NCBI RefSeq assembly: GCF_053078305.1
Contig: NZ_CP166879.1
Length of the DNA stretch: 64,000 bases
Direction: 5' to 3' (one strand)
Below are positions 5,541-58,489 of this stretch, piece after piece (within the stretch, counting starts at the first letter, position 1; each line of letters begins with the position of its first letter). A program made the translations under genes and the position numbers. The notes below the pieces were generated by a model. It ran no database searches, had not been told where the DNA came from, and saw only the letters and a list, made by a program, of their open reading frames with translations.

Positions 5541-6314
5541 TTAACGAACGCTCTGTCCGGTTATTTCAACCCTGCGGTTGGGGCGCAGACATTCCTTCAG
5601 TGCTTCGCCCTCCACATCCGGGCAGAACACCACTGGTGCATCATATCCACGGCCCGTTGCATGTATCCTTTCAGCCCTGAATCCCCGGGCAATAAACCAC
5701 CCCCTGACTGATTCCGCCCGTTTCTCTGACAGGAGCCGGTTATACGCCTGCCCGCCAAGATGGTCCGTAAATCCTTCTATCTTCACCCCGACAACATGAC
5801 CCGCCTGAAACTTCTCTGCCACACGGGAAAGTGCATCACGCCCCCTCTCTGTCAGAGTCCATGAATCAAAATCAAATAATATATCACCGGGGACTGACTC
5901 CCTGTATTCTGCTGTCTCTGCCTCCGGCAGACAGTTTTCCGGCTTCCAGTAGAAAGAGCGGGCATCCATGTTCCGGTCAAACAGTATCTTGTACTGGCAG
6001 GTATAATCCCCCTCCGGTCCGGTAAAGTTGAACAGGTAATCCCATTCCCTTACACCAGACATCCCTTCAGCAAAGTGTGGTCTCCCCGCCAGCTGATAAA
6101 TCTGGTCCTTATTCATACCCGCCTTTATCTGACGTAACTTTTCTGGCAGTGGCCACGAACCTTTCTGTGTTCCGTCATGATTAAACTTCACCTTCTCCGG
6201 AGAAGGCCATACCACTTCTTCCGTCGTTCCTTCATCCGTGACATGACTCAGATTTCCACATCCTGCAAGCATCAGGGACAGCACACCCGTCATCATCATT
6301 CGACTAAATAACAT
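5541..6314 (-). CDS. Outer membrane lipoprotein with BamE/SmpA-like N-terminal domain and OmpA-type peptidoglycan-binding C-terminal domain
   Basis: Lipobox LMLAGC; OmpA-like motifs (GFTDHLGGQAYNRLLSEKRAESV, NRRVEI); AAGGAG RBS; sits 25 bp downstream of the adhesin gene on the same strand. Confidence 0.8.
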   Translation of the reverse strand: MLFSRMMMTGVLSLMLAGCGNLSHVTDEGTTEEVVWPSPEKVKFNHDGTQKGSWPLPEKLRQIKAGMNKDQIYQLAGRPHFAEGMSGVREWDYLFNFTGPEGDYTCQYKILFDRNMDARSFYWKPENCLPEAETAEYRESVPGDILFDFDSWTLTERGRDALSRVAEKFQAGHVVGVKIEGFTDHLGGQAYNRLLSEKRAESVRGWFIARGFRAERIHATGRGYDAPVVFCPDVEGEALKECLRPNRRVEITGQSVR

Positions 6315-16576: not shown

Positions 16577-17608
16577 TCATGTACTCTGACGTAATTCTAT
16601 CTGGTAGTTGAATTGCACGATACGCGACTCTTCTGATTCATCATGATTATTATTCAATAGTCCAATCAGCAGCTTACCCGTCTCTGTCCCCATTTTTTTG
16701 TAGTCAATACGGATGGATGTCAAGGTTGGGTGTGTTTGATCGCAACTGTCTGAACCGTCAAGACAAGCTACAGCGATATTTCCAGGGATTTTTAACAAAC
16801 GCCGCTGGCACTCAAACATGATACCCAGCGCAATCTCTTCGTGGCTGCAAATCACAGCATCCAGCTCTGGTTGTCGCAGTAATATCTCGTTTAATGCGTA
16901 ACGCCCCAATTGCAAACTTGCGGCACCCGGCATGGTGATAACAAGATCAGAGTTCTGGTAATAGCTCAGCATTGCTTTATGCCAGCCGTTCAGTTGCTGA
17001 CGTTGCAGGCGGTTGTCCATATGCGCACCGATAAATCCGATATTCTTATAACCCTGTTCCAGCATATGTTCGGTCAGTTTATGTGATGCTTCAAAAAATG
17101 CTGTTTCGATGGTAATTTGAGCCGGACTGAAAGGGGAACCGACAACGTTAATGGTAGGTATATTTGTTTTCTCGAGTATCTGGTGAGTTTTATCAGCCAA
17201 CTGAGAACCAAAAATAACTAACGCCGCCGGGTTACCTTGAAGAAGCGTCATCAGGATTTCAGCTTCTTTGAGCTGATTATACTCATGACACCCAAGCAGT
17301 AGCTGGAATTCATTTTTATTAAGCACCTGCTGCAACGACTGCATAAAGCGGGAGCTGGTTTTATCTGTCAGGGAAGGAACCAGTACGGCGACTGTATGAC
17401 TGTGACCAGATGCAAGGGCGCCAGCAGTTCTGTTGGGAATATAACCCAACTCTTCTACGGCCTGTTCTATCTTTTCCCTCAGCTTGTCAGAAACCTGTTC
17501 CGGTGTTCTCAGCGCGCGGGAAACGGTCATGGTTCCGACACCTGCAAAGTTAGCGACCTCCTGCAGCGTCACCCGTCCGGTACCACGGCGCTTACGTGTT
17601 TTTCCCAT
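16577..17608 (-). CDS. LacI/GalR-family transcriptional regulator
   Basis: 343 aa; N-terminal HTH (VTLQEVANFAGVGTMTVSRAL) plus periplasmic-binding-protein-like sugar-binding core; divergent from the PTS operon. Confidence 0.9.
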   Translation of the reverse strand: MGKTRKRRGTGRVTLQEVANFAGVGTMTVSRALRTPEQVSDKLREKIEQAVEELGYIPNRTAGALASGHSHTVAVLVPSLTDKTSSRFMQSLQQVLNKNEFQLLLGCHEYNQLKEAEILMTLLQGNPAALVIFGSQLADKTHQILEKTNIPTINVVGSPFSPAQITIETAFFEASHKLTEHMLEQGYKNIGFIGAHMDNRLQRQQLNGWHKAMLSYYQNSDLVITMPGAASLQLGRYALNEILLRQPELDAVICSHEEIALGIMFECQRRLLKIPGNIAVACLDGSDSCDQTHPTLTSIRIDYKKMGTETGKLLIGLLNNNHDESEESRIVQFNYQIELRQST

Positions 17609-17753
17609 TTCGACTCCATGGATAATTACAACCAGCTGTTTTCATTACTTTTATTTTACCATTACTCTTTCCAGTTTTTGCCCACGGTAGCAAATATCCT
17701 GTTGCATTGTATATGCAGGAACCGAATATAGCCAAAGCATGGCGGCAGAGAAA

Positions 17754-17801
17754 TGATAGCGCTATCACAAAGATCGGTAGCGTTATCAGATAGCGCTATC
17801 A
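17754..17801. promoter_or_regulatory. Three tandem LacI-type palindromic operator sites in the divergent promoter region
   Basis: TGATAGCGCTATCA (17754-17767, perfect 14-bp palindrome), CGGTAGCGTTATCA (17775-17788), GATAGCGCTATCA (17789-17801), between the regulator gene and the PTS EIIA gene. Confidence 0.55.
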
Positions 17802-17878
17802 AATGCGACAATCATCACATTAATTAATGCGTAAAATATCTACTCTCCTGTTAATTATCATCGGGAGTTATCAGTCGC

Positions 17879-18322
17879 ATGTTAAAAAATCTATTAAATA
17901 CAAAGGTCGTTCAGGTCGTGGAACAGGTCAAAGACTGGCGGGAAGCCGTGGCGATTTCATGCCGACCGTTGATTGAAAACGGTTCTATCGAACCACGTTA
18001 TGTTGATGCGATCTATCACTCTCACGACACTATCGGTCCGTACTATGTGGTTGGCCCTGGTATTGCGATGCCTCATGCGCGCCCGGAAGAGGGGGCTAAC
18101 AAGCTGTCATTAGCACTGACCCTGATCCCTTCAGGTGTGAATTTTGATGCCGATGAAAACGATCCAGTGAAATTACTGATTGTGCTGGCTGCAACCGACA
18201 GTACCAGCCACATTGAAGCGATTTCTCAACTCGCCAAGTTATTCGATAACGAAAAAGACATACAGGCTATTTTGACGGCCAAAACGACGCAGGACATTTT
18301 GTCTGTTATTGCGCGCTATTAA
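17879..18322 (+). CDS. PTS enzyme IIA component (ascorbate/mannitol-fructose type)
   Basis: 147 aa; phosphorylatable His region (GPGIAMPHARPEEG); first gene of a IIA-IIB-IIC operon. Confidence 0.85.
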   Translation: MLKNLLNTKVVQVVEQVKDWREAVAISCRPLIENGSIEPRYVDAIYHSHDTIGPYYVVGPGIAMPHARPEEGANKLSLALTLIPSGVNFDADENDPVKLLIVLAATDSTSHIEAISQLAKLFDNEKDIQAILTAKTTQDILSVIARY

Positions 18323-18337
18323 TCCTGAGGAACATTT

Positions 18338-18625
18338 ATGAAAATTACAGTGGTTTGCGGTAACGGCTTAGGCACCAGCCTGATGATGGAAATGAGCATT
18401 AAAAGCATTTTGAAGGATTTGTCCGTCAGCGCTGATGTTGATCATGTCGACCTGGGCTCCGCGAAAGGGACGCCGAGTGATATCTATGTCGGCACCAAAG
18501 ACATTGCCGAGCAGTTAGTCGCGCAGTCTGTCGCAGGCAAAATCGTCGCACTGGAAAATATGATTGATAAGAAAGCCATGAGAGAACGTTTATCCGTGGC
18601 ATTAACCGAATTAGGCGCACTGTAA
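18338..18625 (+). CDS. PTS enzyme IIB component (ascorbate family)
   Basis: 95 aa; N-terminal active-site Cys motif KITVVCGNGLGTS; RBS TGAGG. Confidence 0.85.
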   Translation: MKITVVCGNGLGTSLMMEMSIKSILKDLSVSADVDHVDLGSAKGTPSDIYVGTKDIAEQLVAQSVAGKIVALENMIDKKAMRERLSVALTELGAL

Positions 18626-18637
18626 GCTGGGGGCGAT

Positions 18638-19894
18638 ATGGATTTCTTTCGTTTTTTGATGAGCGATGTACTTTCCGAACCCGCAGTGCTGGTCGGTTTA
18701 ATCGCCCTGATTGGCCTGATTGCACAGAAAAAACCGGTAACCGAATGCATTAAAGGTACCGTCAAGACCATTATGGGGTTTGTGATTTTAGGCGCAGGGG
18801 CGGGTTTAGTTGTGTCGTCACTGAGTGACTTCGCAAACATTTTCCAGTATGCCTTTGGTATTCAGGGTGTAGTGCCGAACAATGAAGCCATTGTTTCCGT
18901 AGCGCAGAAAAGCTTCGGGAAAGAAATGGCGATGATTATGTTCTTTGCGATGGTTATCAACATTATGATTGCCCGTTTCACACCGTGGAAATTTATCTTC
19001 CTGACCGGTCATCACACGTTGTTTATGTCGATGATGGTAGCGGTAATTCTGGCAACAGCAGGCATGACCGGCATTACGCTTATAGCCGTTGGCTCTTTGG
19101 TTGTTGGCGTGGCAATGGTCTTTTTCCCGGCTATTGCGCATCCGTACATGAAGAAAGTGACCGGTTCTGATGACGTTGCCATCGGCCACTTCTCAACATT
19201 ATCTTATGTATTGGCCGGTTTCATCGGCAGCAAGTTTGGTAATAAAGAGCACTCGACTGAAGACATGAATGTGCCGAAAAGTCTGCTGTTCTTGCGCGAC
19301 ACGCCGGTTGCTATCTCTTTTACCATGAGCATAATTTTCCTGGTGACGTGCCTGTTTGCGGGTGCAGATGCGGTGAAAGAGCTTAGCGGTGGTAAAAACT
19401 GGTTCATGTTCTCTATCATGCAATCCATTACCTTCGCAGCTGGCGTGTACATCATTCTGCAGGGTGTGCGCATGGTGATTGCGGAGATTGTCCCGGCATT
19501 CAAAGGTATTTCAGACAAGCTGGTTCCGAATGCCAGACCTGCTCTCGATTGCCCGGTCGTCTTCCCTTACGCACCTAACGCTGTACTGGTTGGTTTCCTG
19601 AGTAGCTTTGCTGCAGGTTTAATCGGTATGTTCACGTTGTATTTGCTGAACATGATCGTGATTATTCCTGGTGTGGTGCCGCACTTCTTCGTAGGTGCAG
19701 CTGCAGGGGTATTCGGTAATGCAACGGGTGGACGTCGTGGTGCGATTTTGGGTGCCTTCGCTCAGGGCTTGCTTATTACCTTCCTGCCAGTATTCTTATT
19801 GCCTGTGCTGGGTAACATTGGTTTTGCTAACACCACCTTCAGTGATGCTGACTTTGGCGCACTGGGTATTTTGTTAGGGATTATCGTTCGCTAA
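18638..19894 (+). CDS. PTS enzyme IIC permease (UlaA/SgaT family)
   Basis: 418 aa polytopic membrane protein immediately after IIB. Confidence 0.9.
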   Translation: MDFFRFLMSDVLSEPAVLVGLIALIGLIAQKKPVTECIKGTVKTIMGFVILGAGAGLVVSSLSDFANIFQYAFGIQGVVPNNEAIVSVAQKSFGKEMAMIMFFAMVINIMIARFTPWKFIFLTGHHTLFMSMMVAVILATAGMTGITLIAVGSLVVGVAMVFFPAIAHPYMKKVTGSDDVAIGHFSTLSYVLAGFIGSKFGNKEHSTEDMNVPKSLLFLRDTPVAISFTMSIIFLVTCLFAGADAVKELSGGKNWFMFSIMQSITFAAGVYIILQGVRMVIAEIVPAFKGISDKLVPNARPALDCPVVFPYAPNAVLVGFLSSFAAGLIGMFTLYLLNMIVIIPGVVPHFFVGAAAGVFGNATGGRRGAILGAFAQGLLITFLPVFLLPVLGNIGFANTTFSDADFGALGILLGIIVR

Positions 19895-20260: not shown

Positions 20261-21853
20261 TTATTTATTGGTGAGTACTACGTTCCATGGCAAGAGTTCA
20301 TCAACTCGGTTGGAAGGCCATTCCGGCAGTACGCTCAGGATATGGCGCAGATACGCTTCCGGATCGATACCGTTCAGACGGCAGGTGCCGATCAGCCCGT
20401 ACAACAGTGCTCCACGCTCGCCGCCGTGATCGCTGCCAAAGAACATAAAGTTTTTCTTTCCGAGACAGACTGCACGAAGCGCTCTTTCCGCAGCATTATT
20501 ATCCGCCTCCGCCAGACCGTCATCACTGTAATAACAGAGGGCATCCCACTGATTCAGTACATAGCTGAACGCTTCGCCCAGTCTGGATTTTTTCGACAGC
20601 GTACCATTCTTCTCCACCATCCATTCATGCAGCGACGTCAGTAACACTTTGCTTCGCTGCTGCCTGACGGAAAGACGCTCTGACTCCGGTAATCCCCGTA
20701 TTTCATCCTCGATGGCGTACAGTTCACTGATTCGCTTCAGGGCTTCTTCTGCCTTCGCACTTTTGCTGCTGATGTATACATCGTGGATTTTTCGCCGGGC
20801 ATGGGCCCAGCACGCAACTTCTGTCAGTGCACCACCTTCACGTTCTGCACTGAACAACCTGTCGTAACCTGTGAACGCATCCGCCTGCAGGATACCCCGG
20901 AAGGGGCGGAGGTGTTGCTCCGGGTGTTTCCCCTGCCGGTTCGGCGAGTACGCGAACCAGACCGCTGGAGGAGATGACGAACCCACATTGCGATCATCCC
21001 GGACATACGTCCAGATACGCCCTGTTTTCGCCTTTTTCTGACCCGGTGCCAGTACCTTTACCGGTGTGTCATCAGTGTGAACCTTGCGGGTGTTCATTAC
21101 ATAACGGTACAGGGCATCATTCACCGGTGTCATTAACTGGCAGCACGCGTCAACCCAGTTGGAGAGTAAGGCCCGGCTCAGTTCGACACCCTTGCGGGCA
21201 AAGATTTCACTCTGACGATACAGTGGCAGATGTTCGCAGTATTTTCCCGTTAACACGCGGGCAAGTAATCCGGGGCCCGCGATACCACGCTCTATCGGGC
21301 GGGACGGCGCCGGTGCTTCAACGATGCAGTCACATTTTGTACAGGCTTTTTTTACCCGTTCTGTGCGGATCACTTTCAGGGCGCTGCTCACCAGTTCCAG
21401 TTGTTCTGCACTGACTTCCCCCAGATAATCCAGCTCACCGCCACACTCCGGGCAACAGCTTTCTTCAGACTCCAGACGGTGTATTTCACGGGGAAGGTGT
21501 GCCGGTAACGGACGACGATGGCGCGACTGTCGCAACTGGCGGGGAACCTGTGGATCGTCTTCCCGCCCACTGTAACGATCGCTGTCCTGTTCGCGTTGTT
21601 TCAGCAGGGCCTCAGCCTGTTCAACTTCACGACGCAGTTTTTCAGAACGGGTACCGAACAGCATCCGGCGCAGTTTTTCTATCTGAGCCCGCAGATGTTC
21701 TATTTCCCGTTCATCTTCTTCGATCTTTTCTTCGGCACGTGCCAGTGCAGAGCGCAGGAAGGCCTCCGTCTCTTCAACCAGACTCAGTTGCTGGTCTTTC
21801 TGACGGAGCTGGCTTTCCAGTTCTGCAATGCGAATGAGGTATTTCTGACTCAT
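20261..21853 (-). CDS. IS66-family transposase (TnpC / Orf3)
   Basis: 530 aa; N-terminal coiled-coil/leucine zipper and zinc-finger-like CxxC pairs (CPECG, CTKCDC) typical of IS66 transposases. Confidence 0.9.
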   Translation of the reverse strand: MSQKYLIRIAELESQLRQKDQQLSLVEETEAFLRSALARAEEKIEEDEREIEHLRAQIEKLRRMLFGTRSEKLRREVEQAEALLKQREQDSDRYSGREDDPQVPRQLRQSRHRRPLPAHLPREIHRLESEESCCPECGGELDYLGEVSAEQLELVSSALKVIRTERVKKACTKCDCIVEAPAPSRPIERGIAGPGLLARVLTGKYCEHLPLYRQSEIFARKGVELSRALLSNWVDACCQLMTPVNDALYRYVMNTRKVHTDDTPVKVLAPGQKKAKTGRIWTYVRDDRNVGSSSPPAVWFAYSPNRQGKHPEQHLRPFRGILQADAFTGYDRLFSAEREGGALTEVACWAHARRKIHDVYISSKSAKAEEALKRISELYAIEDEIRGLPESERLSVRQQRSKVLLTSLHEWMVEKNGTLSKKSRLGEAFSYVLNQWDALCYYSDDGLAEADNNAAERALRAVCLGKKNFMFFGSDHGGERGALLYGLIGTCRLNGIDPEAYLRHILSVLPEWPSNRVDELLPWNVVLTNK

Positions 21854-21883
21854 GACCGTTTTTATAATGCGGTCAGGATTTTT

Positions 21884-22234
21884 TTACAACATTGTCAGTG
21901 AGTTACGGCGGGATGTTTTTGGCTGACGCCAGTCCAGCTTATCGAGGAGCATTGCCAGTTGCGAGCGGGTAATGGATACCTTGCCGTCACGTACCGCAGG
22001 CCAGATAAACTGGCCTTCCTCCAGGCGTTTAGTGAACAGGCACAGACCATCAGCATCAGCCCAAAGAATTTTAACGGTGTCACCCCGTCGGCCACGGAAG
22101 ATAAACAGGTGACCGGAGAAGGGATTATCATTCAGCACATGTTGTACCTGTTCTCCCAGTCCGTTGAAGGATTTACGCATATCGGTAACGCCGGCAACGA
22201 GCCAGATACGGGTACCTGATGGGAGTGAGATCAT
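21884..22234 (-). CDS. IS66-family Orf2 (TnpB) accessory protein
   Basis: 116 aa, MISLPSGTRIWLVAGVTDMRKSFNGL...; overlaps orf1 by 4 nt. Confidence 0.9.
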   Translation of the reverse strand: MISLPSGTRIWLVAGVTDMRKSFNGLGEQVQHVLNDNPFSGHLFIFRGRRGDTVKILWADADGLCLFTKRLEEGQFIWPAVRDGKVSITRSQLAMLLDKLDWRQPKTSRRNSLTML

Positions 22235-22656
22235 CTTCCCCTCCCGGTCAGTTCACGGATCAACACCGTGAGCAGCTCTGGCGATGGATTTTCCAGCGTC
22301 ATGTTACCGTGACGGAATTCCACCTTGCAGGAGCTGGCACTGACTCTGGTCTGAGAGGTAGTGGATAAAGATGGCGCAATGGCCACCACAGGTTCTTTCT
22401 GCTCATCCGGCGTTATTTCTACAGGTAATAATTCAACGCCAGTGTCAGAAGAGGTCGTTACCGGAAGACGCCGCGAAACACGCCCTTCGTTCTGCCAGAG
22501 CCTGAGCCATTTGAACAGGAGGTTATCATTGATATCGTGTTCCCGGGCGATACGGGCAACAGAGGCTCCTGGTTGCAAAGCCAGTTTAACCATTTGAAGT
22601 TTAAAATTATTTGAAAATGATCTGCGGGGTTCTGCGGATAATGTTTTTTGCTCCAT
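22231..22656 (-). CDS. IS66-family Orf1 (TnpA) accessory protein
   Basis: 141 aa, MEQKTLSAEPRRSFSNNFKLQMVKLALQPGASVARIAREHDINDNLLFKW... Confidence 0.85.
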   Translation of the reverse strand: MEQKTLSAEPRRSFSNNFKLQMVKLALQPGASVARIAREHDINDNLLFKWLRLWQNEGRVSRRLPVTTSSDTGVELLPVEITPDEQKEPVVAIAPSLSTTSQTRVSASSCKVEFRHGNMTLENPSPELLTVLIRELTGRGR

Positions 22657-23045: not shown

Positions 23046-25727
23046 TTAGCCTGACAGGCCTGACAAAAACGCGCCCAACTTCCCTTCTATATCACTGTCT
23101 ATAGTACGTAATCTTAGCAATGGCAGACCACATTTCTTCAGTATACTGTTTTTAAGTTCATCACGTTCAGCCTGGACACTGGTCAGATGATAGCCTCCAT
23201 CCACTTCAATAACCCCTAATGGAGTCTTCCCGACCTTATAGTAAACAACAAAGTCACAACTGGCCCGATTACGCATGAATAACAGTTCACGGTGAGTAAA
23301 ATCTCCCCGCTCCAGCAACACCAACTGATTCAGCGCTATTTGTGAATGAAACATCATGCTCCGATAACTATCCTGCGACAGGATATCCCGCAACAGGCAG
23401 GCCACAATCTGTTCTGACTTAAAGCGTGAATCATCTGAATTCAATCTACTATTCAGTCGTTCCAGTGATTTGTCATACTCACTGTACAGCAAATCAAATG
23501 CTGATATCACCGGGCTCTCGAAAATCTCTCCGTCATCAGCGTAGTATCTGATGTAACGAATCAGTGCCGCAATATGTCCAGCGTGGCGTTCAAATACATC
23601 ATTACCAGTCACCAACGTAAATTTGTTTCGGGCCCTTGAAACAGCGACATTCACCAGTTCAGGATTATCAACAAACGCGATATTCCGACTTTGCTGGCTG
23701 CTGCGTTTCTTATCCAGCACAGTGGAAAACACAATTTCATCGCACTCCCGTCCCTGAAATTTATGCACCGTCGATTTCACAAAATCAGCGGGCAGCACTG
23801 TTTCAGCCAGATTAACCTGTGCATTATATGGGGCGATATATCCCCTGCTACTTTCCTCATCCCAGTAATGTCCTTCCAGAGATTCAAGCTCCCTGAGATT
23901 TGAAAAATTACGGGTATGGTTTCCTTTTGCCGTGATGATCAGAGATAATGAGGCTTCACCTGAATCAAGCGTTAGCGGTATCAGAGCATTATCATAAAAC
24001 TGCTTATTACAAAATTGAATGATTTTAGGATGACAGCGATAATGCTCTTTAAGAAGAGTTACTGGCACCATATTCCTGAACGACATACAAACCGAATCAA
24101 GTAGACTATATTTCTCACAATTATAGTATTCTGCCGGTGGAGATGGGCTGTTCGGGAGTAATACAGGAACATGTGGAAGTTGCTTTCGATCCCCTACAAC
24201 GATTACATTACGGGCACATCCTAGTCCCAGAATGCCCGGAACAATATCCTGCTGTGAGGCTTCATCAATAATCACATAATCAAGAAGAGCCCCCTTACCG
24301 ATAGAGTTAATAATAGAATGCGTGCTGCTACCAATAACCGGAAAACGCTTTATAAAACGGTTAAATTCATCCCTGTATGTCTCTGCCGAGAATGAATTTC
24401 TTGTTGAAATATTTCTTCGCAGATGTTGTTTTAAATAAAGCACAGACCATGATGTCAGGCGCTCCAGTAAAATTTTAAAATCAGATTCCTTTAATACTTT
24501 CTCATATTCATTCAAAGAAATTTGTTTTTCCCGGATGGATTTTTCATAATAAGAAAGCTGAAGAGAAGTAAATAGTGCCAGCCTTCTCTCCGGAATCACC
24601 AATGGTTTGACTTTCAGTATCCTGAAGTTTAACAACAAATCAATTCTGTTTCTGAATCCAATCCGCCTGTCAGAAAGGTAATGAATATAAGCCATCAGGT
24701 CAGTTGTTTTTCGTGAGGAAAGTCGGTATTTGTGAGAAAAAAGCTCCTCCGGTCGAAGATTCTGACTCTGCCATTGCTGCAGGTATTTATACTCAACACT
24801 CAGTTCATTAATTTCTGCTTTTAACGAAGCAACCTGGTTGATAGCATTCAGGTGTTTTTTCACTTGTTGAAGTACATCATCAATCATATTTGCAGACGGT
24901 GAGTCAGGTAAGACTTCCTCAGAACGCGAAATCGACGTTGAAAAAAACTGTTGTCTGTTCTCCGTACTTCCCAGTCGTGCCACCACATATCCCAGTCGTT
25001 GTTTGTCCATTTTTTCATAAACATTACTGACAGCTGAGTTATTATTGGACAAAATTGCCACTGTTTTATTCTGAATTAATATATTGGCAACAATATTGAG
25101 AATAGTCTGTGTTTTACCTGTCCCAGGTGGTCCTTCAATAACTGAAATCTGTGAGGAAAATGCCCGTTCAACCGCCATTAACTGACTCTCATTCAGGCCA
25201 AACGGAAAAATCAACCCCCATGGCGAATCACGTTTTTTACTCTGTCCTGAACAGTATGCATGCAAGGCGGTATCCGGATGAGGAACTATTTTCTTTATCT
25301 GTCTGAGGATATTCTCATCGATATTTTTATTATTACCTCGAGCATAAAAAACACGTTCGTCAGCCACCCTGCACAAGTAATTAAACACGGCATGCTCTGT
25401 AAATGCTGAACACTGTTGAAAGTCAAGTCCGGTCGTTTTCATGATGTAGGGTCGTTCGCTCTCACGGTAATAAACAGCAGCATATTTATCACCATAGATA
25501 ATAACCCGTTCAGCCCGGGATGTTACAGCGTTCCCTTTCCTTTCGAGGAAAACATTTCGCAAAATTACAGTTGGCGTTATCTGACATACAGAAAGCGGAC
25601 GAGTATATTTTTTCCCGCTGCGAAAATGACAGGTCAGCATAACCTCTCCGTCATCATTTCCAGCCCACAGAGTCCAGTCGGTAATTTTATGAGTCTTATT
25701 TTCACCGTCAACACAAATCGTGACCAT
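23046..25727 (-). CDS. Superfamily-1 helicase fused to a C-terminal PD-(D/E)xK (DUF2726-like) nuclease domain; candidate defence protein
   Basis: 893 aa; Walker A GPPGTGKTQT, Walker B/motif II VIIDEASQ, further SF1 Upf1/DNA2-like motifs (VGDRKQLPHV, HYRCHPKIIQF, STVHKFQGRECD, VAVSRARNKF); C-terminal VIEVDGGYH...ERDELK...GLPLLRL; N-terminal ~180 aa unassigned. Confidence 0.75.
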   Translation of the reverse strand: MVTICVDGENKTHKITDWTLWAGNDDGEVMLTCHFRSGKKYTRPLSVCQITPTVILRNVFLERKGNAVTSRAERVIIYGDKYAAVYYRESERPYIMKTTGLDFQQCSAFTEHAVFNYLCRVADERVFYARGNNKNIDENILRQIKKIVPHPDTALHAYCSGQSKKRDSPWGLIFPFGLNESQLMAVERAFSSQISVIEGPPGTGKTQTILNIVANILIQNKTVAILSNNNSAVSNVYEKMDKQRLGYVVARLGSTENRQQFFSTSISRSEEVLPDSPSANMIDDVLQQVKKHLNAINQVASLKAEINELSVEYKYLQQWQSQNLRPEELFSHKYRLSSRKTTDLMAYIHYLSDRRIGFRNRIDLLLNFRILKVKPLVIPERRLALFTSLQLSYYEKSIREKQISLNEYEKVLKESDFKILLERLTSWSVLYLKQHLRRNISTRNSFSAETYRDEFNRFIKRFPVIGSSTHSIINSIGKGALLDYVIIDEASQQDIVPGILGLGCARNVIVVGDRKQLPHVPVLLPNSPSPPAEYYNCEKYSLLDSVCMSFRNMVPVTLLKEHYRCHPKIIQFCNKQFYDNALIPLTLDSGEASLSLIITAKGNHTRNFSNLRELESLEGHYWDEESSRGYIAPYNAQVNLAETVLPADFVKSTVHKFQGRECDEIVFSTVLDKKRSSQQSRNIAFVDNPELVNVAVSRARNKFTLVTGNDVFERHAGHIAALIRYIRYYADDGEIFESPVISAFDLLYSEYDKSLERLNSRLNSDDSRFKSEQIVACLLRDILSQDSYRSMMFHSQIALNQLVLLERGDFTHRELLFMRNRASCDFVVYYKVGKTPLGVIEVDGGYHLTSVQAERDELKNSILKKCGLPLLRLRTIDSDIEGKLGAFLSGLSG

Positions 25728-58044: not shown

Positions 58045-58489
58045 AATTGTTATTATGAGATATCTATAACACCTGAAGTTGGAAAAAGAAGCAAATAATT
58101 CCTTATAAGGGATCGTTTACTAATATATTTAGATAATCTCATATTTGTTTATGATATACATCTGATTAAGATATAATGGATTATAAATTACTCAAAGATG
58201 AACAAATATCTTCGCCTTTTCTCGTAGAAAGAGACTTGAAACTTATAACACATCTATATAAATGTGATTTAAATCACGGTTTGCAGTAAAAGCAATTGGT
58301 ATAATTCATTGGTATTCCTATTATTTTATCTATTGCGCGAACTATTTTACAACAATAAAAAAGATATACAAACAGCAAGAAGTAAAAATATTCGGATAAA
58401 TAAAAACTTTTGCTACCTTGGTTTCTATAGTCTTTATTTCTAAGTTTTTCATAAGCACTCAAAGACTCATGTATAGGGATGGTTTAATA

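Follow-up and report, generated by a model that had tools for sequence, protein, structure and literature searches.

The vpe locus

In the 64-kb stretch of DNA that was analysed (the window), a 270-bp gap at positions 17609–17878 separates a regulator gene on the minus strand from a divergent operon on the plus strand (17879–19894). The regulator gene, vpeR (16577–17608, minus strand), encodes a LacI-family protein of 343 residues, in which Pfam finds the PF00356 HTH at residues 14–59 and a sugar-binding core of periplasmic-binding-protein-like domains. The operon consists of vpeA (17879–18322, plus strand; PTS EIIA, 147 residues, Pfam PTS_EIIA_2), vpeB (18338–18625, plus strand; PTS EIIB, 95 residues, Pfam PTS_IIB), and vpeC (18638–19894, plus strand; 418 residues). 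The last gene encodes a PTS EIIC of the ascorbate/galactitol superfamily that matches Pfam EIIC-GAT and scores above the cut-off of NCBIfam NF006919. The open reading frames and the Pfam matches bear out the initial annotation, which had described a divergent region between a LacI-family regulator and a PTS operon.

Their sequences identify the four genes as the vpe locus (vpeR/vpeABC) that has been published for pathogenic E. coli islands. Supplementary file 17 of Montero et al. 2019 (PMC6455142), from which the names vpeR, vpeA, and vpeB are taken, lists a LacI-family VpeR of 343 residues, VpeA of 147, VpeB of 95, and VpeC of 418, followed by the deoK operon. The lengths of the open reading frames in the window (343/147/95/418) agree with that table, and the VpeR sequence printed in the supplement is near-identical to VpeR of the window. 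The VpeC accession given there, WP_000345347.1, is also the one carried by L087, one of the related loci compared below. The vpe locus has been placed in pheV-type islands, adjoining the deoK operon (PMC6455142), and deoM-deoP-deoK-deoQ lie downstream of vpe in L087 as well as in L001 and L086. In the window, an IS66 element is found downstream of vpeC in place of the deoK operon. The window is E. coli accessory DNA and contains ireA, a gene for a YadA-like adhesin, and IS remnants. Such remnants flank the vpe locus.

In papers citing Martinez-Jehanne et al. 2012, vpe is credited with a part in urovirulence, sepsis, gut colonisation, and capsule amount, and the published vpe work, as cited in them, deals with the in vivo role of the transporter. 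Of 5426 complete E. coli genomes, 941 (~17%) carry the vpe intergenic region, with 95–100% identity. The original vpe study, by Martinez-Jehanne and colleagues (Infect Immun 80:2655), is said to give the VpeABC substrate as unknown, and none is named in the literature searched, which comprised work other than that 2012 paper.

The structures closest to VpeR are those of LacI-family regulators. The nearest NCBIfam models are GntR/IdnR, at 275 bits against a cut-off of 400, and VpeR falls below the cut-off of every model. Homologues have been identified in Buttiauxella, Yersinia, Brenneria, Photorhabdus, Providencia, Proteus, Edwardsiella, Pectobacterium, Erwinia, Photobacterium, and Vibrio. When clustered at 50%, the VpeR clade forms three clusters (573, 457, and 353 bits), after which the score drops sharply to 244 bits; the nearest outgroup clusters are from Motilimonas, Gilliamella, and Pantoea. 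In the alignment of VpeR with its relatives, the HTH, the recognition helix, the GxMTVSRALR segment, and the hinge leucine L65 are all invariant. A hinge leucine is the type of residue that inserts at the central CpG of the operator.

Sequence and geometry of the probable operator sites

Three copies of a 14-bp palindrome are packed within 48 bp of the intergenic region. The site proximal to vpeR, S1 (17754–17767, centre 17760.5), is the perfect palindrome TGATAGCGCTATCA. The middle site, S2 (17775–17788, centre 17781.5), is degenerate and reads CGGTAGCGTTATCA, with three mismatches, while the distal site, S3 (17788–17801, centre 17794.5), lies beside a CRP-like site and reads AGATAGCGCTATCA, with one mismatch. 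The perfect palindrome and the two near-copies that had been annotated can therefore be read directly from the DNA, with 0, 3, and 1 mismatches. Their spacing had been given as about 21 and 35 bp. The first value is correct, whereas S3 starts 34 bp, not 35 bp, from S1. The start-to-start distances are 21 bp for S1–S2 and 13 bp for S2–S3, and S2 and S3 share the single base 17788. The vpeA ATG lies downstream of the site centres, at a distance of 84.5 bp from S3, 97.5 bp from S2, and 118.5 bp from S1. The motif joins the half-sites TGATAGC and GCTATCA into an even palindrome with a central CG, which agrees with the LacI/GalR operator form that had been assigned to it.

S2 is the most decayed copy in the window, with three mismatches compared to 0–1 in Buttiauxella and Yersinia. 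In other E. coli lineages, S2 reads TGGTAGCGTTATCA; the T>C change at 17775 is specific to the lineage of the window and weakens S2 further.

Single sites of this kind are not rare in the window, which has eight perfect 14-bp palindromes. Six matches to the motif with up to three mismatches are found, compared to a shuffle mean of 2.5, so their number is not above that in the shuffles. The three matches outside the array, at 23970, 31254, and 51825, have three mismatches each and are scattered. What distinguishes the array is its clustering. In 5000 mononucleotide shuffles, three matches inside 60 bp were never obtained and two were obtained in 34, and the clustering of the three sites is far beyond chance.

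The abundance of perfect palindromes and the IS remnants around the locus could still suggest that the repeats arose by chance, are left over from a mobile element, or belong to a structured RNA. Several observations speak against these readings. Such clustering is absent from the shuffles, and the same array is present in core-chromosome copies of the module without nearby IS. An Rfam search of 17400–18100 assigned no family, its best hit having an E of 0.51 and 21 bits where the gathering score is 90, and the idea of an RNA element was dropped. The array would also be located upstream of both predicted transcription starts. Conservation across genera, described below, effectively refutes all of these readings, and their probability is negligible.

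Conservation across related loci

The array was compared across 82 loci, comprising 80 genome loci, one Vibrio locus, and one Pectobacterium locus, with a total of 896 kb from 15+ genera. The divergent module of the regulator and IIA (147 residues), IIB (95), and IIC (418–419) is kept in all 82, and VpeC is 84–98% identical in all related loci. The neighbourhoods of the module are unrelated: it adjoins pta-ackA in Yersinia and Proteus and is located elsewhere in Vibrio. No gene for a catabolic enzyme is consistently linked to the module among the 82 loci. In the Pectobacterium locus only, a gene of the transaldolase/FSA family follows IIC.

Four layouts of the sites can be distinguished. In group A (Buttiauxella, Dryocola, Yersinia, Brenneria, Citrobacter sp., Vibrio, and E. 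coli), the order is S3, S2 at 13 bp, and S1 at a further 21 bp. Group B (Photorhabdus, Providencia, Proteus, Moellerella, and Edwardsiella) has S3 and S1 only, at exactly 34 bp from each other, with unconserved DNA between them. Group C, made up of loci L024, L025, and L032, has three sites spaced by 22 and 22 bp, with a full operator at the position equivalent to S1. In group D, which has 396-residue regulators, the sites are diverged. Diverged sites are what is seen in the lineage in which the regulator gained a second HTH.

In groups A and B and in Vibrio (66 loci), the copy at the position of S1 is perfect or has a single mismatch; a two-site locus of Brenneria roseae (L031) has an S1 with two mismatches. 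S2 is perfect or has one mismatch in most group A relatives and is absent in Photorhabdus, Proteus, Providencia, and Edwardsiella. The consensus of S3 in the orientation of the regulator is TGrTAGCGCTAyCT. The central CG is present in 35 of 35 distinct sequences of the distal site and in 22 of 22 of the middle site, and it is near-invariant in the proximal site (20/22 and 19/22). S1 also has a conserved asymmetric flank of its own, and 17 of 22 distinct sequences carry a G at −1. When the group A intergenic regions are anchored on S1, few conserved blocks are seen besides the operators. In 66 loci, S1 and S3 are exactly 34 bp apart, including those in which the intervening DNA is unconserved.

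Across the 82 loci, 112 matches have no more than one mismatch, and every one of them lies upstream of the regulator gene at a distance of up to 400 bp; no such copy occurs elsewhere in the 896 kb, and no further strong site was found in the 64-kb window or in the 896-kb flanks of the related loci. The array is a strong phylogenetic footprint, as read from these alignments. The invariant 34-bp spacing, together with the change of the sites where the DNA-binding region of the regulator changes, ties the array to VpeR. The assignment of the sites as an operator array of the adjacent regulator is well supported, since they recur upstream of the orthologous genes in more than 15 genera and the DNA around them drifts. 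A pattern of this kind is the usual comparative evidence for a cognate operator. Based on these observations, the three palindromes are very probably VpeR operators, and it is likely that they serve as such to control the divergent vpeR/vpeABC pair.

Another protein, either a LacI-family paralogue or an unrelated factor, could bind the palindromes instead, with VpeR reading a different site. The motif agrees with the optimal CcpA cre at 12 of 14 bases and with the symmetric lac operator at 10 of 14, and this likeness makes cross-recognition by a paralogue conceivable. On the other hand, the array moves with vpeR through unrelated contexts and hosts (Vibrio, Yersinia, Proteus, and E. coli islands), it is altered when the DNA-binding region of the regulator is altered, and no copy with up to one mismatch is found elsewhere in the 896 kb of flanks. 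We consider binding by another protein very unlikely. No paper with the exact 14-mer was found in a literature search, and no experimental description of these operators was found in the literature searched, which comprised work other than the 2012 vpe paper.

CRP-like sites and predicted promoters

A CRP-like site, AAATGCGAcaatcaTCACATTA, is located beside the operators at 17801–17822 (centre 17811.5), and its core at 17804–17819 matches 9 of 10 positions. This conserved neighbour of S3 had not been mentioned in the initial annotation. Taken by itself, the site is not significant in the window, where four hits are found and 2.4 are expected. In the related loci, a core with at least 8 of 10 positions is found at a fixed 2-nt gap from S3 in 48 of 72 loci, compared to 0.06% of background 16-mers. 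At that register, no recognisable site is present in Proteus, Providencia, Moellerella, and Edwardsiella.

A second CRP-like site, TGATAgcgctaTCACA, may overlap S1 at 17754–17769 (centre 17761.5), 50 bp from the first, with 8 of 10 core positions. This site is tentative, and 6 of the 10 matches are contributed by the operator itself. In its favour, the asymmetric flank specific to S1 is conserved, and TGTGA is kept at this position in the lineage with 396-residue regulators, in which the operator core is lost.

For vpeABC, the predicted −10 element is TACTCT (17841–17846, plus strand), within a conserved block that reads GAGaGTAGa on the reverse complement, which would place the transcription start near 17853. 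Of the 48 loci in which the CRP-like site is good, 33 have a TAnnnT hexamer at a distance of exactly 21 nt from its core. In these 33 loci, the hexamer is TACTCT in 23, TACCCT in four, TACGCT in three, TATCCT in two, and TAAAGT in one. A second candidate, TAAAAT (17832–17837), is nearer to the consensus but is unconserved, whereas TACTCT is conserved, and TAAAAT was rejected as the vpeA −10. With TACTCT as the −10, the CRP-like site would be centred at −41.5, and the vpeABC promoter is, on balance, probably a CRP-dependent class II promoter.

For vpeR, the promoter scan gives TTGGCT-18-TACAAT, which is one of just two promoter-like hits in the region. The predicted −35 TTGGCT (17730–17735, minus strand) falls in the conserved block cTTTggCtaT, and the predicted −10 TACAAT (17706–17711, minus strand) would place the start near 17699. 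The −10 block, caTATAcAaTgc, is conserved in Buttiauxella, Yersinia, Citrobacter sp., and Enterobacter sp.

From these conserved hexamers, we infer that the operators are located upstream of the starts of both predicted promoters. Relative to the predicted vpeA start, S3, S2, and S1 would be centred at about −58.5, −71.5, and −92.5, respectively; relative to the predicted vpeR start, these positions would be about −95.5, −82.5, and −61.5. If the true starts differ from the predicted ones, the sites could overlap a promoter.

Such an overlap would correspond to the main rival reading, in which the VpeR operators act by plain steric occlusion and the true promoters overlap the array. Most characterised LacI-family repressors bind sites that overlap the promoter, and candidate −10 hexamers do exist within the array. 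Towards vpeR, the right half of S1 and the T that flanks it form a conserved TATCAT, which matches TATAAT at 5 of 6 positions, and the right flank of S1, TCATTT, is conserved in every group. Towards vpeA, S3 contains TATCAA. Neither hexamer was reported by the promoter scan, however, and no acceptable −35 is found 16–18 bp upstream of them, the best being CTATCA with 3 of 6 matches. In addition, conserved blocks with good promoter character are located outside the array on both sides. Repression by simple occlusion is regarded as unlikely.

Proposed mode of regulation

Repression by VpeR is assumed here from the behaviour of the LacI family. Given this assumption, we tentatively favour a mechanism in which VpeR blocks CRP-dependent activation (anti-activation) over simple promoter occlusion, because the operators would be located upstream of both predicted promoters and S3 abuts the CRP-like site. 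Without inducer, VpeR dimers would occupy the strong outer sites S1 and S3, 34 bp apart. In the clade of the window, VpeR could also occupy S2, which at 21 bp from S1 shares its helical phase but overlaps S3 by one base. Together with the CRP-like site, the operators would make up a control region common to vpeR and vpeABC. Transcription of vpeABC would start from a class II CRP promoter that lacks a −35 and has a weak −10, TACTCT, with the CRP-like site centred at −41.5. S3 would cover about −52 to −65, the stretch on which the alpha C-terminal domain of RNA polymerase would dock, so that VpeR at S3 would stop activation instead of covering the promoter. With S1 some 61 bp upstream of the predicted vpeR start, the array could also control vpeR. 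The inducer, probably a phosphorylated sugar imported by VpeABC, would free VpeR from the DNA. Since the CRP-like site is missing in some genera, anti-activation of CRP would not be universal.

Cooperative binding and autoregulation, both of which had been proposed for the regulator, are plausible by analogy with other members of the family. The 21-bp spacing of S1 and S2 corresponds to two helical turns and would fit cooperative binding. On the other hand, the one-base overlap of S2 and S3, which are 13 bp apart, makes simultaneous cooperative occupancy by three dimers doubtful.

The same positions could also be used for activation. VpeR could be an activator or a dual regulator that acts on vpeR or vpeA from about −60 in the manner of class I activators, and typical activator positions would be taken up by S1 (about −61.5 of the predicted vpeR promoter) and S3 (about −58.5 of the one predicted for vpeA). 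A precedent may be PagR, a LacI-family protein of Salmonella that is described as an activator of SPI-2 genes. The orthology of PagR to VpeR is unsupported, however: no Salmonella protein is found among the VpeR homologues down to 44% identity, and there is a large score gap. Moreover, local sugar-responsive regulators of the LacI family are overwhelmingly repressors (PMC4052901). Activation by VpeR from these sites is accordingly improbable.

A more elaborate arrangement may also be considered, although we regard it as rather unlikely. Here, the array would not be three independent operators but a composite CRP–VpeR switch with two CRP sites 50 bp apart. The CRP sites might be located at −41.5 and about −91.5 of vpeA, the latter overlapping S1 and corresponding to about −62.5 of vpeR, and they might perhaps bracket the VpeR sites or compete with them. 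VpeR could conceivably bind in one of two mutually exclusive registers, either S1 with S2 in phase or S1 with S3 at 34 bp. By this means, one repressor might set the two divergent promoters differently. In this reading, the complex would exist in a hard-wired version with four heads in the lineage with the duplicated HTH.

Implications

VpeABC, a PTS transporter encoded on pathogenicity islands, is associated with fitness and virulence, and the arrangement described here is of the textbook kind for a local repressor and its operators. To a specialist, it is a small surprise, and it is useful chiefly for the access that it gives to the transporter. The operator motif and the promoter model can be turned into a de-repression reporter for finding the inducing sugar. 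The motif can also serve as a search pattern for other VpeR targets, for example, the genes possibly behind the capsule phenotype. The geometry of 13 + 21 bp beside a CRP site is highly conserved from Vibrio to Escherichia and suits a test of the occupancy of overlapping operators. If the composite switch were true, the locus would be a tractable natural system for the question raised by Ravcheev et al. 2014 on overlapping sites 13 bp apart.

Comparison with known systems

In a survey of 1303 LacI-family regulons, even palindromes with a central CG were the rule (Ravcheev et al. 2014, PMC4052901). In the same survey, the inter-site distance peaks at 13, 22, and 32 bp, 116 operons have triple sites, and 72% of LacI-TFs are autoregulated; the sites are mostly located 30–140 bp upstream of the regulated start codon. 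The vpe array agrees with these family features in its even palindromes with a central CG, its spacings of 13 and 21 bp, and its position.

Among the named LacI-family clades, GntR/IdnR of E. coli is the closest to VpeR, yet VpeR falls below all of their cut-offs. GntR and IdnR control gluconate genes, whereas the target of VpeR would be a PTS transporter. The half-sites also differ, that of GntR being of the TGTTAC type compared to TGATAGC in the VpeR sites. Overlapping operator pairs 13 bp apart are typical of GntR, are functional at gntKU, and are conserved in more than half of the GntR-regulated operons; the dimers are expected to clash on such pairs, and their binding mode is unexplained (PMC4052901).

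A second group for comparison is RegPrecise regulog 5355, a LacI-family regulog of Enterobacteriales named SgaR, with STM2345 as an example and with 9 regulons and 34 sites (PMC4052901). SgaR is predicted to control sgaTBA-like PTS genes of the ascorbate family and is also listed for Vibrionales, Aeromonadales, and Pasteurellales (PMC4052901). These taxa overlap with those carrying the vpeR module, and SgaR has many sites per regulon. STM2345 is PagR of Salmonella, which is described as an SPI-2 activator that responds to low Mg2+ and low phosphate. Neither a Salmonella member nor a very large unnamed cluster is found among 120 VpeR homologues down to 44% identity. A Salmonella member is also absent from the 50%-representative search, from the names of the nearest outgroup clusters, and from the list of IIC homologues, which are mostly E. 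coli variants. If VpeR belongs to the SgaR group, its motif is already catalogued in silico.

For the geometry of the sites, GalR and CytR offer the nearest parallels. GalR binds gal OE at −60.5, beside CRP at −41.5, and CytR binds between CRP sites that are ~50–53 bp apart. At vpe, S3 would be centred at about −58.5 beside a CRP-like site at −41.5, and the possible second CRP-like site is 50 bp away. No downstream operator that could support looping was found at vpe. The operators of CytR are poor and dependent on CRP, whereas the vpe operators are near-perfect palindromes. By analogy, and with the start sites placed as predicted, the geometry would fit anti-activation of the CytR/GalR type. 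Overall, the vpe array is a typical example of LacI-family architecture and is ordinary for this family of regulators.

Conservation and loss of the transporter genes

Compared with all related loci, the EIIC encoded by vpeC (window 18638-19894) is 84-98% identical from Pectobacterium and Erwinia to E. coli, while the LacI-family regulator VpeR (52-89% identity) and EIIA (56-93%) have drifted considerably faster. Judged by these identities, the constraint on EIIC is apparently unusually strong for a transporter. In the Yersinia pestis locus (L021), no EIIC has been detected, EIIB is truncated, and the intergenic region is ~100 bp longer on the regulator side. Here, the transporter looks pseudogenised, with the predicted operators and the regulator retained.

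No catabolic genes accompany the vpe module (loci cited: L082, L083, L084, and L085), with the exception of Pectobacterium, in which a transaldolase/fructose-6-phosphate-aldolase-family gene follows EIIC (L085 4936-5601). This gene is a faint hint that the product may enter the non-oxidative pentose-phosphate pathway. In the window, a complete IS66-type element (tnpA, tnpB, and tnpC, all on the minus strand; 20261-22656) is located ~370 bp past vpeC, and beyond it lies an 893-aa SF1-helicase/DUF2726 ORF (23046-25727). The same place in other strains is occupied by the deoK (deoxyribose) operon.

Variation of the operator array

The middle predicted operator, S2 (17775-17788), is more decayed in every E. 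coli copy examined (the window and two other lineages) than in Buttiauxella and Yersinia, where it is perfect or nearly so. In the lineage of the window, its first base (17775) carries a T>C change relative to the other E. coli lineages (TGGTAGCGTTATCA). S2 looks like an operator whose erosion is still in progress in the E. coli island copy.

In an Enterobacteriaceae MAG (L024), Cedecea sp. (L025), and ‘Klebsiella sp. BIGb0407’ (L032), the array takes another form, with three sites, each perfect or nearly so, spaced 22 + 22 bp. These arrays lack S3 (17788-17801 in the window) and have an additional site nearer the regulator, while the spacing of the CRP-like site to the S2 position is unchanged. 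By its spacing, this is an array apparently shifted to a new register with helical phasing retained.

In Proteus (L062), two copies of the operator motif with three mismatches each (TGATAACGCTATAT at 5975 and AGATACCGTTATCA at 5993) lie 18 bp apart within the 3′ end of the regulator gene, adjoining a convergent NUDIX gene; other Proteus loci have them at matching positions. The pair could reflect chance, coding conservation, or an additional operator pair. A near-perfect CRP-type palindrome, TGTGATTTAAATCACG, occurs elsewhere in the window, at 58263-58278, and contains the perfect 14-mer GTGATTTAAATCAC.

Regulators with a duplicated HTH

In the 396-aa VpeR homologues, the complete LacI HTH and hinge are duplicated in tandem throughout the lineage (L064, L065, L068, L070-L081, and L085; regulator at ~5001 or 8001; proteins P0037-P0073), which comprises Pectobacterium, Erwinia, Samsonia, Brenneria izbisi, and Winslowiella. 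The recognition helices of both HTH copies are near-identical. Given the tandem HTH and hinge, a dimer would therefore carry four DNA-reading heads. The intergenic arrays of this lineage have diverged to AGGTAGCGCTAACT, TGATATnnCTATCA (in which the central CG is gone), and, at the S1 position, TGTGAccnGCTTAgCA.

A putative second CRP site

Unlike S2 and S3, S1 carries an asymmetric flank that is conserved (GTG-ATAGCGCTATCA-TT; window 17754-17769 and the S1 position of all loci). Together, S1 and its flank form a CRP-like TGTGA-N6-TATCA (8/10 match), whose centre is 50 bp away from that of the main CRP-like site (17801-17822). In the 396-aa lineage, the operator core is gone at the S1 position but TGTGA is still kept. 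This pattern suggests CRP-like sites in tandem at the vpe control region. The putative S1-overlapping site and the main CRP-like site would resemble the tandem CRP sites of CytR-regulated promoters.
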